This document shows positions 16,861-23,952 of a stretch of DNA of 29,779 bases, in pieces. A program made the position numbers and the translations under genes. How positions within the stretch are numbered: position 1 is the first letter of the stretch; each line of letters begins with the position of its first letter. The DNA comes from a virus, in UHGV virus genome UHGV-1366609, one strand, 5' to 3'. A model generated the notes under the pieces. The model had not been told where the DNA came from, ran no database searches, and saw nothing but the letters and a program-made list of their open reading frames with translations.

Positions 16861-16886
16861 GCCCGCATAAAGCGGGCTTTTTTATT
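16861..16886 (+). terminator. Rho-independent terminator, probably bidirectional, between convergent ogr-like and methyltransferase genes
   Basis: GCCCGC-ATAAA-GCGGGC hairpin followed by TTTTTTATT, 5 nt after the ogr-like stop. Confidence 0.7.
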
Positions 16887-17601
16887 CGACATCACAAAGC
16901 GCGGTCATGATCGCCAGCCGTTCCGCTGGCGGCAAGGCGGCGAACTTATCCCGCCAGCGTGCCGCTTTACGTTTTATCCTGGCCCGGTCGTTGTAGTCCT
17001 TTCCGGCAAAGGTGTGGGAATAGGCTTTCCCTTCCTCGTAATTCATCCAGATTTTTTCCGTTCGCACGCCGCCCCGCGTCATGGCCTGAAACTCTCGCGT
17101 TCGCCAGCCGGTCAGCGTGCTGTCATAAAGCTGCGACGGGTAGCCAGACAAAATGACACTCACATTTTCCGGCAGTGACATCAGGCAACGTAAAAGGCGC
17201 TCATGATCGGCGACGGTGTATTCATGGCGGTAACGGGCGTGACTGGTGCGCGTTTCCGGCATATATGGCGGATCACAATAAATCAGCACCTTACCCAGCT
17301 TTTCAAAAGACGTAACCCCATCCAGCACGCTAGGCCTTTTGAGACTTTCAAGAAAATACACGGCATCACCATGAAAAAAATCAATGCGTGGTGGCTTCAA
17401 TCCCTTAACCTCCCAACGCTGCATTGTTTGCCGACGTGCTGTTTCATCAAGATCCGCACCGTAATTCCGCTTCGCAGGCGGCTTGAAAAACATCACCGCA
17501 CCGCTGCCCAGATGCGTTTCAATGTAGGTATCATGCGGGGGCATTTCAGCAATGATTTTCTGATAGACCCCGCTGGCCGCTTTACTTCCCAGATAACTCA
17601 T
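16882..17601 (-). CDS. N6-adenine DNA methyltransferase (phage-type Dam-like), orphan
   Basis: 239 aa. HLGSGAV (AdoMet-binding, motif I-like) and LIYCDPPY (motif IV DPPY). No adjacent nuclease-like gene. Confidence 0.6.
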   Translation of the reverse strand: MSYLGSKAASGVYQKIIAEMPPHDTYIETHLGSGAVMFFKPPAKRNYGADLDETARRQTMQRWEVKGLKPPRIDFFHGDAVYFLESLKRPSVLDGVTSFEKLGKVLIYCDPPYMPETRTSHARYRHEYTVADHERLLRCLMSLPENVSVILSGYPSQLYDSTLTGWRTREFQAMTRGGVRTEKIWMNYEEGKAYSHTFAGKDYNDRARIKRKAARWRDKFAALPPAERLAIMTALCDVE

Positions 17602-17817: not shown

Positions 17818-20427
17818 TCATTCTTTTGGGTGGCGACCTTCCGCACCCGCCAGCATTTTTTGATACTCCCCGACCGGATCAAACCGCAGGCGCGTGGCAT
17901 CTATACCGTGGTTATCCCGCAGACGTTCCCATAATTTATTCATCGTCCGTGACTCGTCGGGTAATTGACGCGTTATTAACTGGCCGTCAGCACTGGCCCG
18001 ATAAACTTTGCCGCCAATCTCCAGACAGCTCCCCATTAACAGCGAAACGGCCTGAATCTCTGAAATCTCAACCGAACACAACACCGCATCAGCCAGCAGA
18101 CTGGCAACCGCAGGGGCAAGCGCTGCCCGTCTGGCTTTTTCTGCCGCTGATCTGGCCTCGGTTTTTTCGACGGCAGAACGCCACGCGACATCTAATTCGC
18201 TTCCTGGCTCATAAGGTGATCCGCTTTTCTGCCTTTTGAATGGTGTTTCACGTAGTCGCCGCATCAATTTGCGCCGCGTCTGCTGGTCCATGTTTTCAAA
18301 ATCGACGATTTCCTCTTCTGATTCTTCTGTCATCCCCTCCACATCAGGCGAAAAATCGGTGATTTTTTCGTCTTCCGTAGAGTTATTGACAGAACTCCAA
18401 GCGTCGCCGGTTGGCGACGGCAAAAGGTCAACCCCCAAACCGGGGCCTTTTTTGGCCCCGGTGGCGGCTTTGGATTTGGCGCGGATTTTCCACTTAACCA
18501 GGCGGGTGCAAATACGGGAGGCATCCCCCAGACGCGGCGACCAGACCCCGAATACCTTTTCGGGGATCTCACAATAAGCATTCATTTCATCAGCAGGCTG
18601 ATAGGCCAGACGAACGACATAGTTTTCACGCGGGATCAAAACACCGCCCTGGCGGATGATGTAGGTAGCAAAGCACCCAACATCGGCAGCAGCGCAAACC
18701 GCATCCATCGCAGGATCCATAAGCAGCGGTGCGCCGCGCTTGAAGGTATTGTCAATTTTCTGGCGGGCCGTGATCTGATTGCTCAGTTTGCGCAGCTCGC
18801 GGTAAACCGATATAGGCGGTTGTCCGATGGGCTGAAACTGGCGGATACGGTGAAGCGATGCCCAAGCCATTGCAAACTTGGCTGTTTCATTCAGGGGCTT
18901 GCCGCTTTCGTCGTCCAGTTCACCGGCCAGCGCGTGGCCGTCGATATTCTTTGAAATGTATTTGGCTATGTATGCCGTTGCTGACCCTTTTCGCGGGTCC
19001 ATTTTTTTTGACTTGAAGCGAGCGCCGGTATTGCGGCCCAGCTCGTCGCGGTCTTCCGCAATGAAGTAAGCGCGAAGGATCGCAACCGTGGCTTTAACTT
19101 GCTCCTTTGGCATAAACAGCAATGCGTGCCAGTGTGGCGTCCCATCGTGATGCGGCTCGGCGACGCGGAAGCCATAAGGGCGCAAATCTTCGCGTTTCAG
19201 TTTGGCGGTTGCCCGGTTCCATACACGGCATAAATAGCGCTGCGCCTGGGCGACGGTGGAATGATTCCATTTGGCGTTATGGTGGCCGGACGCAATATTA
19301 CTGTGATATTTCGACGGGCAAGTAATGGTCAGGAAGATGCCAACATCGCCGCGACTTTGGGCGACAAGTTCAACCCCAGCCATTCGGGCCATAAGCTCAT
19401 GGCGACGAATAGCCGGGTTAGACGTGGATTTATTAATCATTTCCTCGAGCGACGAAACGTTGCCGTCTTCGTCTACCAGTTCATGACTTTTGAAAAAATC
19501 CCGGTTTTTACGGCGCTGTTCCTGCCACTCGATCAGGCTGGAAGCGCTAACGTAGGCGTGCGCTTTTTTATTTACCGCGCCAACAGCACGCAGCTGGTTC
19601 TCGCGCCAGTCACAACGCAGGCGCCAGATTTTGCGCCCCCACCAGTCAGGCGAAGCCATACGCAAAATGGCCGTGCATATGCGCTCGCGTTCCCACGGCG
19701 CATACCATGCAGGCGGCACAATACGAAGCGCCAGCATTTCGCGGCCCAGGTGGCAATAAAGCCAGTCCAGTTCTTCGACGTTCATGTCGGAAACATTCCG
19801 CCCCAGGGCTTCGCATTCCGTCCCAAGCATTTCAGCCATGCGGCTGGCGATCTCATTAGCGGCGCTTAGTGCCTCCCGCTTTGTGAAATCAGCCAGTCGT
19901 TGCCAGCGCCCGAACCAGTACGCGGCCAGTTCGCCGGTGAGATCAGGCGAAACACCTTGCCTTGTGCGCACAACATCAAGACGCAGCAATGATTTTTTCA
20001 CGGTCCCCATAAGAAAATCATTGGTGTGTCTGGCTTCACGGTTGGCCCGTAACCATTCAATTTTTTTGCGCCAGACTTCACGAATGAAGAACGGCTCTGA
20101 TAATAAACGCGCTTCGACACCTTCCGGCGTATTGGCCCAGGCTGCCGCCGTAGCTTTGGCGGCTTCCATTTCCTGCCGGATTATATTTTGATGGGCGGCC
20201 AGTGGCAGGCCGCACGGTTCGTACCTGTCCAGCGCCTGGATAAGCGCGTTACGGTCGCGAACATCGTCGGGGTTGTAACCGGCGCGTTTGAAGATGTGAT
20301 CGATGTGTTTTTTAACGGCAGGATGATGCGCCACCGCCCCGGCAAGCGGGGCGATTTTTTTCGGTTCGTAGGTGTAAAGGCCAACAGCTGGGCGCGGCGC
20401 GTTCCAGGGCCATGCGAAATCAGTCAT
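17818..20427 (-). CDS. A: Rolling-circle replication initiator, P2 gpA-like
   Basis: About 869 aa from ATG 20427..20425 (the track ORF begins at an upstream TTG). HUH motif TPHWHALLF and paired tyrosines YIAKY (Y-x3-Y), as in P2 A. Confidence 0.85.
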   Translation of the reverse strand: MTDFAWPWNAPRPAVGLYTYEPKKIAPLAGAVAHHPAVKKHIDHIFKRAGYNPDDVRDRNALIQALDRYEPCGLPLAAHQNIIRQEMEAAKATAAAWANTPEGVEARLLSEPFFIREVWRKKIEWLRANREARHTNDFLMGTVKKSLLRLDVVRTRQGVSPDLTGELAAYWFGRWQRLADFTKREALSAANEIASRMAEMLGTECEALGRNVSDMNVEELDWLYCHLGREMLALRIVPPAWYAPWERERICTAILRMASPDWWGRKIWRLRCDWRENQLRAVGAVNKKAHAYVSASSLIEWQEQRRKNRDFFKSHELVDEDGNVSSLEEMINKSTSNPAIRRHELMARMAGVELVAQSRGDVGIFLTITCPSKYHSNIASGHHNAKWNHSTVAQAQRYLCRVWNRATAKLKREDLRPYGFRVAEPHHDGTPHWHALLFMPKEQVKATVAILRAYFIAEDRDELGRNTGARFKSKKMDPRKGSATAYIAKYISKNIDGHALAGELDDESGKPLNETAKFAMAWASLHRIRQFQPIGQPPISVYRELRKLSNQITARQKIDNTFKRGAPLLMDPAMDAVCAAADVGCFATYIIRQGGVLIPRENYVVRLAYQPADEMNAYCEIPEKVFGVWSPRLGDASRICTRLVKWKIRAKSKAATGAKKGPGLGVDLLPSPTGDAWSSVNNSTEDEKITDFSPDVEGMTEESEEEIVDFENMDQQTRRKLMRRLRETPFKRQKSGSPYEPGSELDVAWRSAVEKTEARSAAEKARRAALAPAVASLLADAVLCSVEISEIQAVSLLMGSCLEIGGKVYRASADGQLITRQLPDESRTMNKLWERLRDNHGIDATRLRFDPVGEYQKMLAGAEGRHPKE

Positions 20428-20435
20428 GGCGGCCC

Positions 20436-20702
20436 TCAAAACGGCAATTCATCGTCAGTGCAATCTGGATCAATGGCGAGCGTAACCGGGCTACCGCACT
20501 TAAAACTTAGCGCCTCTGAGAAGGTGGAAAAAGCAGCGGTATCGCGAACACAAACGCCGTCATAAAAAGCGTCGAACTCAACCAACCAGATGTCACCCAT
20601 TTGCCAACGGTCATGGATACGCTCAACGACCATCATCGCGGTGACATCTCCGTCCGTAGTGGCCGGATCAAAGCCGATGAATTCCCTTGCGGTCAGGCTC
20701 AT
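20436..20702 (-). CDS. Small highly acidic early protein with SSB-tip-like C-terminus (function unknown)
   Basis: 88 aa, about 17 Asp/Glu versus 5 Arg/Lys; C-terminus ...DPDCTDDELPF confirmed codon by codon. Its stop sits 8 nt before the A start. Confidence 0.5.
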   Translation of the reverse strand: MSLTAREFIGFDPATTDGDVTAMMVVERIHDRWQMGDIWLVEFDAFYDGVCVRDTAAFSTFSEALSFKCGSPVTLAIDPDCTDDELPF

Positions 20703-20926
20703 TTTTTACACTCCACGTTATATTTTTCATGCGTCATCAGTGACCAGACCTTGCCGTCGTTTTTACTCAGCAAGCGCCAGCGCCTACCGATGCGGATCAC
20801 AAGGTAAAAATTGGGTTTGATGCGGGAATAGTTTTTTAGGCCGCGAGAAAAGCGGCGCAGCTCGGCAGCTGCGTGACCGCAGACACCTACCGGCGCAGCG
20901 CATGAGATCTGCAGTTTGCTGACCAT
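20699..20926 (-). CDS. Small basic hypothetical protein
   Basis: 75 aa, Arg/Lys-rich; start overlaps the upstream stop (TGATG). No motif recognised. Confidence 0.4.
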   Translation of the reverse strand: MVSKLQISCAAPVGVCGHAAAELRRFSRGLKNYSRIKPNFYLVIRIGRRWRLLSKNDGKVWSLMTHEKYNVECKK

Positions 20927-21381
20927 CAGAAAGGTACTCCGCCGTCAAAATCACCGACTGGCGACGTCTTGAATGTAAAAGCCGTTCCTGGGCGAAATTT
21001 GCGGGCGTTCTTGAATGATCGAAAAGTGCGCGAGTGCGGGAAGCTATCCCCCGTCATGACATCCATTGCGATTACATCAACCCGAACGGAACCACGCTCC
21101 CGGCGAGTGATAGAGATAACCTTCTCAACTACTGCAAAAACAGAGGTGTCGTGAGGGGCATAAGGTGCGACCGGCGAGACTTGTTGCACTGCCGGACTAT
21201 GTTTCTCAATTAGTGGATCAAGTATCGCGTTAAAGGAAATTAGCAATGTATTAGCCACGTCAGGCCCAGCCAAAACGCCCGCTAACGTCGCATGGGCAAG
21301 CGCAATGGTTTTAGCTTCGTTAAGCGCAGCCAGCACTCCGCGTGTAAATTCGGATTGAGTTGCATCGATACGGGTTGCCAT
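20926..21381 (-). CDS. Hypothetical early protein ending in an SSB-tip-like tail
   Basis: 151 aa; C-terminus ...SPVGDFDGGVPF confirmed from the nucleotides. Coupled to the Dam stop upstream and the 75-aa start downstream. Confidence 0.5.
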   Translation of the reverse strand: MATRIDATQSEFTRGVLAALNEAKTIALAHATLAGVLAGPDVANTLLISFNAILDPLIEKHSPAVQQVSPVAPYAPHDTSVFAVVEKVISITRRERGSVRVDVIAMDVMTGDSFPHSRTFRSFKNARKFRPGTAFTFKTSPVGDFDGGVPF

Positions 21382-22346
21382 TAAAAAGCCTCCACGCCAT
21401 TGGCCGCAGCCGATGCCAGCATTTCGTTGTAGGTCGCGTCCCCCATTACCGGGCCGCAGTCAGGACAACAGCCACCACCGGCACGACCGCAGCCGCTGCA
21501 CACTTTGAGGACGCCGATCACCTCTTTGGCCTTTTCGCGGTTTTTAGTGCTGGCGCTTACCGAACGCTGGACGGCAATTTCCTGGAAGCGGAAGTCTTTG
21601 TAGATCTCGCGAGTCAGCGGGGTGTCGCTGTTAGAAATCACGACAGACGCGCCAGTCTCTCGGTTTGCTTTCAGAAGGGCGGCAACAAGCTGGCGGTGTT
21701 GCTTCTTACCAAATGGGCCAGTGTGGTACTGGGTAAAATTGGCGGTGTCACTTGCAGGCAGGTACGGCGGATCACAGTAAATAACGCTATCAGGGAAAAG
21801 AGGGGCGTTGATGGCGTCTACGAAGTCACTACAAAGAAATAAAGTGCAGGTATCGCGGGCCTTTTCAGAGAACAAGCGGATCTCCACTTCTGGCAAATAC
21901 TGCGTTTCTTTATCCTTCCCCTTTCCGTAAGGGGTGTTGTACTCACCTTTCAGGTTGTAGCGCACAACACCGTTGTAGCCGTGGCGGTTCAGGTACAAAA
22001 AGAACGCGGCGCGGGCGACACTAGTAAAATGGTGGCGCAGGCGGCGACCTTTCGGATGATTGAACATGTCGCGAAGTTTTGCGTAATTTGCGCTGGTATT
22101 GCGGTTCTTAAACAAGTCGCGAGACAGGCTTATCAGTTCGTCAGGGGTGCTTCTGGCAACACGATAAAGGTTAATCAAATCGGGGTTTATATCGCTCAGA
22201 ATGTAGCGACGATAATCTGTATTCAGGAAGACGGAAGCGCCCCCCACAAACGGCTCAACCAGGCATTCACCTTTCGGCAGAATCGGCAGTAATTCAGGCA
22301 TAACGCGGCCTTTACCACCGGGCCATTTAACGAGAGATCGAATCAT
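21381..22346 (-). CDS. dam: Dam-family DNA adenine methyltransferase (likely GATC-specific) with C-terminal Cys-rich extension
   Basis: N-terminus VKWPGGK...LPKGECLVEPFVGGASVFLNTDYRRYILSDINPDLINLY is near-collinear with E. coli Dam as I recall it; motif IV VIYCDPPY. Extra C-terminal CSGCGRAGGGCCPDCG. Confidence 0.85.
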   Translation of the reverse strand: MIRSLVKWPGGKGRVMPELLPILPKGECLVEPFVGGASVFLNTDYRRYILSDINPDLINLYRVARSTPDELISLSRDLFKNRNTSANYAKLRDMFNHPKGRRLRHHFTSVARAAFFLYLNRHGYNGVVRYNLKGEYNTPYGKGKDKETQYLPEVEIRLFSEKARDTCTLFLCSDFVDAINAPLFPDSVIYCDPPYLPASDTANFTQYHTGPFGKKQHRQLVAALLKANRETGASVVISNSDTPLTREIYKDFRFQEIAVQRSVSASTKNREKAKEVIGVLKVCSGCGRAGGGCCPDCGPVMGDATYNEMLASAAANGVEAF

Positions 22347-23586: not shown

Positions 23587-23652
23587 TGGGGCACATCGGG
23601 CAAATGTTGTCTATGTGCTAATTTCTGGTGATTGTGATGAGATCTTATCATT

Positions 23653-23952
23653 ATGTCAATGACGCAAGGCGAAAAACTAGCTCTTATTCGCGACTCTGAA
23701 CGCTTAACTAAAAGGCAAATGTCTGATTTAACAGGTTTAAATTATTCAAGTTATGGCGGTTATGAGCGAGATAAAACAAAAATGACACTTGAAGCAGCTG
23801 TATGTGTTTTCGGACACCCTCGTTTTCATAAGTATCAAGACTGGTTTATGTATGACCGTACGGACGAAAGCCGGGGGCAAATAGCACCGGCTCTCGCGCA
23901 CAATGGGCCATACAAAATGCAGTCAGACCCCTCAGAGAAACAGACTGGTTAA
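23653..23952 (+). CDS. C: Immunity repressor, P2 C-like
   Basis: 99 aa. MSMTQGEKLALIRDSERLTKRQMSDLTG and the C-terminal GQIAPALAH closely parallel P2 C as I recall it, including identical length. Confidence 0.85.
   Translation: MSMTQGEKLALIRDSERLTKRQMSDLTGLNYSSYGGYERDKTKMTLEAAVCVFGHPRFHKYQDWFMYDRTDESRGQIAPALAHNGPYKMQSDPSEKQTG

Follow-up and report, generated by a model that had tools for sequence, protein, structure and literature searches.

A rare family of early proteins in P2-like phages carries C-terminal tips resembling that of host SSB

Partner recognition by the C-terminal tip of the bacterial protein SSB (SSB-Ct) depends on the free carboxylate of a terminal Phe, a penultimate Pro (the ssb113 position), an aliphatic residue before this Pro, and acidic residues further upstream, and the tip is an antibacterial target. 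In bacteriophage T7, the acidic, Phe-terminated tail of gp2.5 binds partners and competes with DNA for the cleft. SSB from Escherichia coli ends in MDFDDDIPF, and this nine-residue acidic tip suffices to bind RecO, PriA, PriC, and chi (PMC7145534); it is a docking handle shared by at least 17 E. coli genome-maintenance proteins (PMC7145534). Here we describe two small early genes in the viral sequence UHGV-1366609, a stretch of 29,779 nucleotides (hereafter, the window) that is the ~30-kb genome of a P2-like phage. Its closest sequenced relative is Salmonella phage SI7 (Peduoviridae, Irrigatiovirus), which is ~95% identical across the shared parts. The products of the two open reading frames (ORFs), ORF88 and ORF151, end in tips that resemble SSB-Ct, and their sequences suggest that they are probably miniature SSB-like proteins bearing an SSB tip, which would engage host SSB partners during phage replication. 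The two genes and their tips are located as follows.

20436..20702, minus strand: ORF88, stand-alone acidic barrel with SSB-type tip, 88 amino acids (aa), isoelectric point (pI) 4.05
20439..20456, minus strand: ORF88 tip DDELPF, residues 83-88, in a predicted disordered tail (residues 81-88)
20926..21381, minus strand: ORF151, helical hairpin, linker, basic barrel, and SSB-type tip, 151 aa
20929..20952, minus strand: ORF151 tip DFDGGVPF, residues 144-151, in a predicted disordered tail (residues 141-151)

An earlier note on this DNA had reported that the 88-residue protein is strongly acidic and ends in DDELPF, and that the 151-residue protein ends in DFDGGVPF. Translation bears out both termini (...IDPDCTDDELPF for ORF88 and ...SPVGDFDGGVPF for ORF151), and the composition of ORF88 (17 Asp/Glu against 5 Arg/Lys) agrees with the note's description. 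In both proteins, the terminal Phe is followed by the stop codon, the penultimate residue is Pro (P87 in ORF88 and P150 in ORF151), and position -3 is aliphatic, being L in ORF88 and V in ORF151. The acidic run at positions -4 to -8 is D-D-E in ORF88 and a weaker D-F-D-G-G in ORF151. All four SSB-Ct determinants are present in the tips of the family, although at position -3 it is the residue class that is matched and not the identity of Ile. When stop-to-stop ORFs of at least 40 codons were scanned in all six frames of the window, only ORF88 and ORF151, among 400 such ORFs, combined acidic residues with an [LV]PF ending. Models computed with AlphaFold2 (AF2) predict that both tails are disordered, with predicted local distance difference test (pLDDT) values below 50 for residues 81-88 of ORF88 and 141-151 of ORF151. 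Within the tips, D84, L86, P87, and F88 are invariant among the close homologues of ORF88 (clusters P0001-P0007), as are D144, F145, D146, V149, P150, and F151 among homologues of ORF151. The ORF151 homologues comprise P0008-P0016 and P0035.

Family members were sought by a word-indexed search of 5.8 billion clusters formed at 90% identity together with an exhaustive HMMER scan of 1.84 billion representatives. The family so obtained is very small, comprising 25 clusters at 90% identity, and 23 of them keep a tip that consists of [L/V/A]-P-F after acidic residues. The tip consensus is DFDDxLPF, to be compared with DFDDDIPF in E. coli SSB; examples are MDFDDGVPF (in ORF151 homologues), HDFDDDLPF (in locus L013), YDFDEDLPF, DDFDDGLPF, and DDDLPF, and the acidic run in ORF151 homologues reads D-F-D-D-G or D-F-D-E-D. 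In several members, 7-8 of the 8-9 terminal residues match SSB. One sub-clade (P0032/P0036) has lost the tip and ends in ...QFRHE or ...QIRHE. In an alignment of 20 sequences (A4), entropy falls to 0.99, 0.29, and 0.29 bits in the three final columns, values as low as those of the best core columns; the 8-10 linker columns ahead of the tip have entropies of 2.2-3.0 bits with gaps, the linker varying in both length and sequence across the family. A six-frame search of 20 sequences (19 loci and the window) for the pattern [DEGM][DEG][LVI]PF followed by a stop codon retrieved family members only. Moreover, the tip codons vary synonymously (TTG/CTG/TTA for Leu, CCG/CCA/CCT/CCC for Pro, and TTT/TTC for Phe), and the gene downstream of the tip differs between loci, being gene A, a ParE-like gene, or another barrel gene. 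These two findings point to selection on the peptide rather than on an overlapping DNA signal, and on several independent counts the tails are more than chance.

No tailed member was found in 50,697 GenBank phage records or, at the DNA level, in complete E. coli genomes (megablast, tblastn), and a related-locus search with alignment A1 yielded only one genome locus and three IMG/VR loci. Four long proteins (P0024, P0026, P0028, and P0030; 1353-4047 aa), each with 6-17 short matching stretches, were set aside as spurious repeat or low-complexity artefacts.

The tips are attached to small predicted barrels, the modules of which are placed as follows.

20478..20639, minus strand: ORF88 small beta-barrel core, residues 22-75, net charge -5, pI 4.4
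20661..20681, minus strand: ORF88 motif FIGFDPA, residues 8-14, conserved, ahead of the barrel
21199..21363, minus strand: ORF151 N-terminal helical hairpin, residues 7-61, AF2 helices 7-38 and 40-61
20968..21144, minus strand: ORF151 barrel, residues 80-138 (AF2), strand and helix order b-b-b-a-b as in ORF88

In the AF2 model of ORF88, residues 21-78 form a confident core (block pLDDT 79-92) in which strands 22-35, 38-47, and 50-58 are followed by helix 61-66 and strand 72-75; the N-terminus and the tail are disordered. A disordered linker (residues 65-78) separates the hairpin from the barrel in the model of ORF151, the core segment of which (residues 79-140) has 12 Lys/Arg against 5 Asp/Glu and a pI of 11.55. 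The ~55-residue barrels of the two proteins may resemble the oligonucleotide/oligosaccharide-binding (OB) fold. Residues F8, I9, G10, P13, and A14 of the FIGFDPA motif are invariant, and distant and fused members retain the motif in the form w/f-x-G-F-D-P-A. It is disordered in the AF2 model, and might either supply a barrel strand that is missing there or serve as another linear motif.

BLASTP gives no alignment between ORF88 and ORF151, and their relationship is visible at the profile level only. Comparison of the two profiles with hhalign gives a co-terminal alignment (residues 12-88 with 70-151, E 3.3e-5), and MAFFT independently aligns the two families (alignments A3 and A4). In addition, there are intermediates between them: in P0015 and P0016 the ORF88-clade motif w-x-G-F-D-P-A is retained, while P0020 and a 91-aa protein from L013 carry ORF151-type DFDD tips on a stand-alone barrel. 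Taken together, these sequence comparisons identify ORF88 and ORF151 as paralogues in a rare, unannotated family that is specific to P2-like phages, a relationship that the earlier note had overlooked. The anatomy of the family is a ~55-residue OB-like beta-barrel, as modeled, followed by a short variable linker and a conserved SSB-type tip. Barrels fused to the hairpin have net charges of +5 to +7; those of the stand-alone cores range from -7 to 0 (-2 to -7 in the close clade of ORF88, -1 to 0 in distant members). The hairpin is separable, because it also exists as a stand-alone gene of 64-87 aa in other P2-like phages (L011:3986-4180 in Klebsiella CP052639; P0017, P0019, P0023, P0025, and P0029). 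In L013, a hairpin gene is followed after 2 nucleotides (nt) by the gene for the 91-aa barrel-and-tip protein, which ends in HDFDDDLPF and lies directly upstream of gene A.

The barrel also occurs without a tip. Proteins of 57-59 aa in phrog_8110 constitute a tail-less sub-family, the core of which is homologous to the barrels described above (hhalign 96.8%, E 2.5e-10 over 54 columns, A5 against A4). One member of our family (P0031) matches phrog_8110 at E 8e-4; neither ORF88 nor ORF151 itself reaches the PHROG threshold. The tail-less barrels stop right after their last strand, implying that the barrel needs no added C-terminal element. Their genes were located at the following positions.

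L020:1796-1966, L021:5219-5389, L011:5391-5561, and L002:6406-6582: tail-less barrel genes directly upstream of gene A

Searches with tblastn place tail-less barrels in Enterobacter phage phiT5282H as well, and in the 115-kb Aeromonas phages phiA009/phiA019, whose size is well beyond that of a P2-like phage. In the Klebsiella P2-like element CP052639.1, an unannotated ORF downstream of Dam (L011:5039-5404) contains ...VWLAVDPADESGDCTIVTALVYRI...FTLIDFRAF... and, by eye, looks like a divergent tail-less member of the barrel family; a 57-aa barrel gene comes next.

How far does the likeness to SSB extend? The family profile and E. coli SSB are aligned by hhalign in the last eight columns only (dfdd~lPF with DFDDDIPF), the tip being the part of the SSB query that was matched to the literature. 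Neither ORF matches the OB domain of SSB (PF00436) in Pfam, NCBIfam, or PDB sequences, and scans of both against Pfam, PHROGs, NCBIfam, and PADLOC gave no match. A profile search of PDB sequences returned nothing meaningful, a match to PDI at E about 1 being noise, and Foldseek comparison with viral structures gave only uncharacterised small phage proteins (E of at least 0.02). The literature that we searched contains no description of the family, nor of an SSB-Ct tip on a phage protein other than SSB, and every other protein with an SSB tip found in our searches is a canonical SSB. According to the earlier note, such tails are not known to have been described for early genes of the P2 family, and our scans of Pfam, NCBIfam, PADLOC, PHROG annotations, and the literature agree. 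It had also argued that the idea would fall if the proteins belonged to a characterised family with an unconserved C-terminus; here no characterised family matches, and the C-terminus is conserved.

Several observations weigh against a role for the tips in engaging SSB partners. The likeness to SSB is confined to the last 8 residues, as judged from Pfam, PDB sequences, and hhalign, and Pro-Phe is preceded by L, V, or A in every tailed member, across alignment A4 and clusters P0033-P0038, but never by the Ile of enterobacterial SSB. The ORF151 tip has Gly-Gly where SSB has Asp-Asp, and its codons GGC GGA G also provide a Shine-Dalgarno-like sequence for the next gene. The linker has ~5-10 residues compared to 56 in SSB. 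Finally, the existence of tail-less paralogues (phrog_8110; P0032 and P0036) indicates that the barrel has a function independent of the tip. Alternatively, the resemblance to SSB could be a coincidence, with LPF packing on the barrel as a structural element or acting as a signal for stability or degradation: the motif is short, position -3 is never Ile, tail-less relatives function without a tip, and disorder of the tail is a prediction from low AF2 confidence. We consider such a coincidence very unlikely given the extent of the match over the terminal residues, the placement of the tip after a linker of varying length and sequence, and the termination of tail-less barrels just past their final strand. 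The family tips also look unlike the known C-terminal degrons of bacteria, such as the LAA signal of the ssrA type and the basic signal of the MuA type. A beta-clamp motif was also considered and rejected, as the tips are without the Q and L positions of QLxLF.

In our estimate, the chances are about even that the tips function by docking on host SSB-interacting proteins. During lytic replication, the tips would then dock in the SSB-tip pockets of host proteins such as the chi subunit of Pol III, DnaG, PriA, RecQ, ExoI, and others. ORF151, with its basic barrel and a hairpin that probably mediates oligomerisation, might serve as a small SSB-like adaptor for single-stranded DNA (ssDNA) in rolling-circle intermediates, where it would sit on the displaced strand. 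As in SSB or T7 gp2.5, DNA and the acidic tail would compete for the barrel, and the protein could draw in host factors, for instance chi/Pol III, DnaG, or PriA. Such a role for ORF151 fits a phage that has no polymerase and whose ORFs, as scanned in the window, include no canonical SSB; the phage also appears to be without a loader of the P2 gpB type. The acidic barrel of ORF88 is an unlikely DNA binder, and the tip that it presents may serve as a decoy or competitor, or the protein may link those host proteins to another partner. The proposal in the earlier note that both proteins are mimics of the SSB tip is upheld in part: the tails are indeed conserved and close to the SSB tip, but the strongly basic barrel, which the note had overlooked, places ORF151 nearer to a miniature SSB than to a pure mimic.

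A more elaborate joint reading, which we regard as doubtful, makes ORF88 a bipartite mimic of SSB-coated ssDNA and ORF151 a minimal ssDNA-binding hub. The ORF88 barrel would fill the DNA groove of one enzyme (for example, ExoI, RecQ, PriA, or RecG) while its tip plugged the SSB-Ct pocket of the same enzyme, and ORF151 would redirect the remaining partners to the rolling-circle intermediates of the phage. If this were true, ORF88 would be without precedent as a natural protein that inhibits or hijacks the interaction hub of bacterial SSB.

The charge of ORF88 raises a different possibility, namely that it works mainly, like Ugi, gp5.9, or Ocr, as an acidic mimic of DNA that would block a host DNA-binding enzyme or a restriction system, the tail being secondary. 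In addition to its 17 acidic residues and low pI, ORF88 occupies a slot rich in cargo of the anti-restriction type (Dam, Dcm, and PAPS reductase), and proteins of its type stand alone in several phages. Acidity varies within the stand-alone clade over the range given above, however, whereas the tip is conserved, and there is no match to PADLOC or to known mimic families. We therefore think it quite unlikely that DNA mimicry is the main function of ORF88.

In the window, both genes belong to an early operon on the minus strand, the other components of which are listed in order of transcription.

23631..23659, minus strand: promoter-like site TTGACA-17-CACAAT upstream of the early operon, identified by consensus match alone
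After the promoter-like site and ahead of Fil, minus strand: Cox-like gene, 155 aa
Between the Cox-like gene and the 131-aa gene, minus strand: Fil
Between Fil and Dam, minus strand: 131-aa gene, phrog_7428
21381..22346, minus strand: Dam (D12-class) methyltransferase, first gene of the putative translationally coupled block
20699..20926, minus strand: 75-aa ParE_like (PF24732) / phrog_1525 gene, overlapping ORF151 and ORF88 at start and stop
17818..20427, minus strand: gene A, rolling-circle replication initiator (PF05840, E 2.7e-107)

From Dam to ORF88, every start codon overlaps the stop codon of the gene before it. Gene A starts with an ATG at 20427, 8 nt past the ORF88 stop codon, and its product begins MTDFAWPW. 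These overlaps, and the analogy with a note on orf84/A in phage 186, make translational coupling of the Dam-to-A genes plausible. Beyond the 3' end of gene A lies a second, shorter ORF resembling D12-class methyltransferases (16882..17601, minus strand; 239 aa; PF02086, E 4e-6), in the slot that is taken by orf91 and tin in P2; SI7 likewise has a 'DNA methylase' there.

The position of the ParE-like gene raises the question of whether ORF151 might, by means of its hairpin, be the antitoxin of the 75-aa protein in a toxin-antitoxin module unrelated to SSB. This protein matches PF24732 (E 2.8e-18), ORF151 lies directly upstream with a 1-nt overlap of stop and start codons, and a stand-alone hairpin gene adjoins the ParE-like gene in the Klebsiella phage. 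Such a module would, however, sit inside a lytic early operon; it would be without an antitoxin-type DNA-binding domain or any match to PADLOC or NCBIfam, and it would leave the conserved tip unexplained. Moreover, ParE-like genes are present without ORF151 or the hairpin in SI7 and L002-L004, and ORF151 or the hairpin is present without a ParE-like gene in L009, L013, and L020. Because each occurs without the other, the ParE-like gene is not an obligate partner, and the toxin-antitoxin reading, which is extremely unlikely, was rejected.

All family members that we found are located between Dam and A within the early operon, in P2-like prophages or phage contigs. They come from Salmonella, Kluyvera, and E. 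coli and from metagenomes of gut or environmental origin, the prophages being P2-like elements of Enterobacterales. Five gene orders were seen.

L005-L007 and L016: Dam, barrel with tip, A
L002-L004: Dam, barrel with tip, ParE-like, PAPS reductase, 59-aa tail-less barrel, A
Window, L008, L009, L022, and L023: Dam, fused protein, (ParE-like), barrel with tip, A
L020 and L021: Dam, fused or tailed protein, 57-aa tail-less barrel, A
L013: Dam, hairpin, barrel with tip, A

Barrel members are often immediately upstream of gene A. SI7-type phages have Dcm in the place of ORF88 and are without ORF151. Phages 186 and P2 hold other genes between the equivalent ends of this segment, and none of their early-operon proteins proved to be a family member or to have such a tail when checked. 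The record for 186 labels its genes in the segment 'not essential', and that for P2 does not label Orf80-83 essential. The ParE-like gene is retained in SI7 and in the Klebsiella phage without a fixed partner gene.

A further observation concerns Dam, which has a C-terminal add-on (21384..21500, minus strand) consisting of a Cys4 ribbon (CxxC...CxxC) and ~20 residues that lead to an acidic Phe end, ...NGVEAF. As a result, three consecutive operon products (Dam, ORF151, and ORF88, with the 75-aa ORF standing between the last two) end in acidic residues plus Phe. Related Dam proteins end in ...YGVEPF, ...VAEDFF, ...DGAEGF, or ...ADEVIF, and the add-on is also found in L001, L009, L011, L012, L017, and L018. 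Residues 267-312 of Dam match the C-terminal parts of two 'exonuclease' PHROGs, which suggests that this segment may be a portable docking module.

This genomic setting bears on another explanation, in which the tips dock on a phage partner (the initiator A, Dam, or the basic barrel of ORF151 itself, whose DNA-binding cleft would receive the acidic tail) and not on host SSB partners. The genes for ORF88 and ORF151 are plausibly coupled in translation with Dam and A, a tailed or tail-less barrel protein recurs directly upstream of A, and a second barrel protein is present in 6/6 of the related loci examined that have a fused basic member. The acidic, Phe-terminated ends of the neighboring Dam proteins (EAF, EPF, DFF, EGF, and VIF) hint at a shared docking site, and the tail of gp2.5 works with T7's own replisome proteins. 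The family tips nevertheless match host SSB specifically (DFDDxLPF), which goes beyond 'acidic plus Phe', and proteins of the ORF88 type exist without ORF151. In addition, the slot upstream of A is filled elsewhere by unrelated genes, namely those encoding PAPS reductase (186), DUF5405 (P2), and Dcm (SI7). We consider docking on a phage partner to be unlikely on balance.

If the tips do engage host SSB partners, the family would probably exemplify a virus that taps or jams the SSB hub, and an SSB tip on a ~55-residue barrel would provide a natural minimal scaffold for studying tip recognition. With its basic and acidic paralogues, the family would supply a ready-made comparison of two carriers of one tip, of which one would bind DNA and the other would not. 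Formerly blank genes between Dam and A in the P2-like prophages of Salmonella, Kluyvera, Klebsiella, and E. coli would also gain a testable role.

Among known proteins, phrog_8110, from P2-like Klebsiella/Enterobacter phages and Aeromonas phages, shares a homologous barrel and a position just upstream of gene A with the family, but it is without the N-terminal GFDPA motif, the linker, and the SSB-type tip. The acidic DNA mimics Ugi, T7 gp5.9, and Ocr resemble ORF88 in being small, acidic, early phage products; no relation in sequence or fold was found, however, and it is the tip rather than acidity that the family conserves. T7 gp2.5, an OB-type protein, is likewise phage-encoded and has an acidic tail ending in Phe, although it is 232 residues long and its partners are the polymerase and helicase of T7 itself. 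P2-like phages, unlike T7, have no polymerase of their own and rely on host Pol III, and the tips described here copy the Pro-Phe motif of host SSB instead of that in gp2.5. SSB itself (PF00436) has the same succession of an OB-type barrel (predicted here), a disordered segment, and an acidic tip ending in hydrophobic-Pro-Phe-COOH, and ORF151 resembles it further in pairing a basic barrel with an acidic tail. The barrel is only ~55 residues in length compared to ~112 in SSB, the ORF88 barrel is acidic, and any oligomerisation would come from a separate helical hairpin. Even so, an OB-type barrel joined to a flexible, acidic, Phe-terminated tail is the known logic of SSB.

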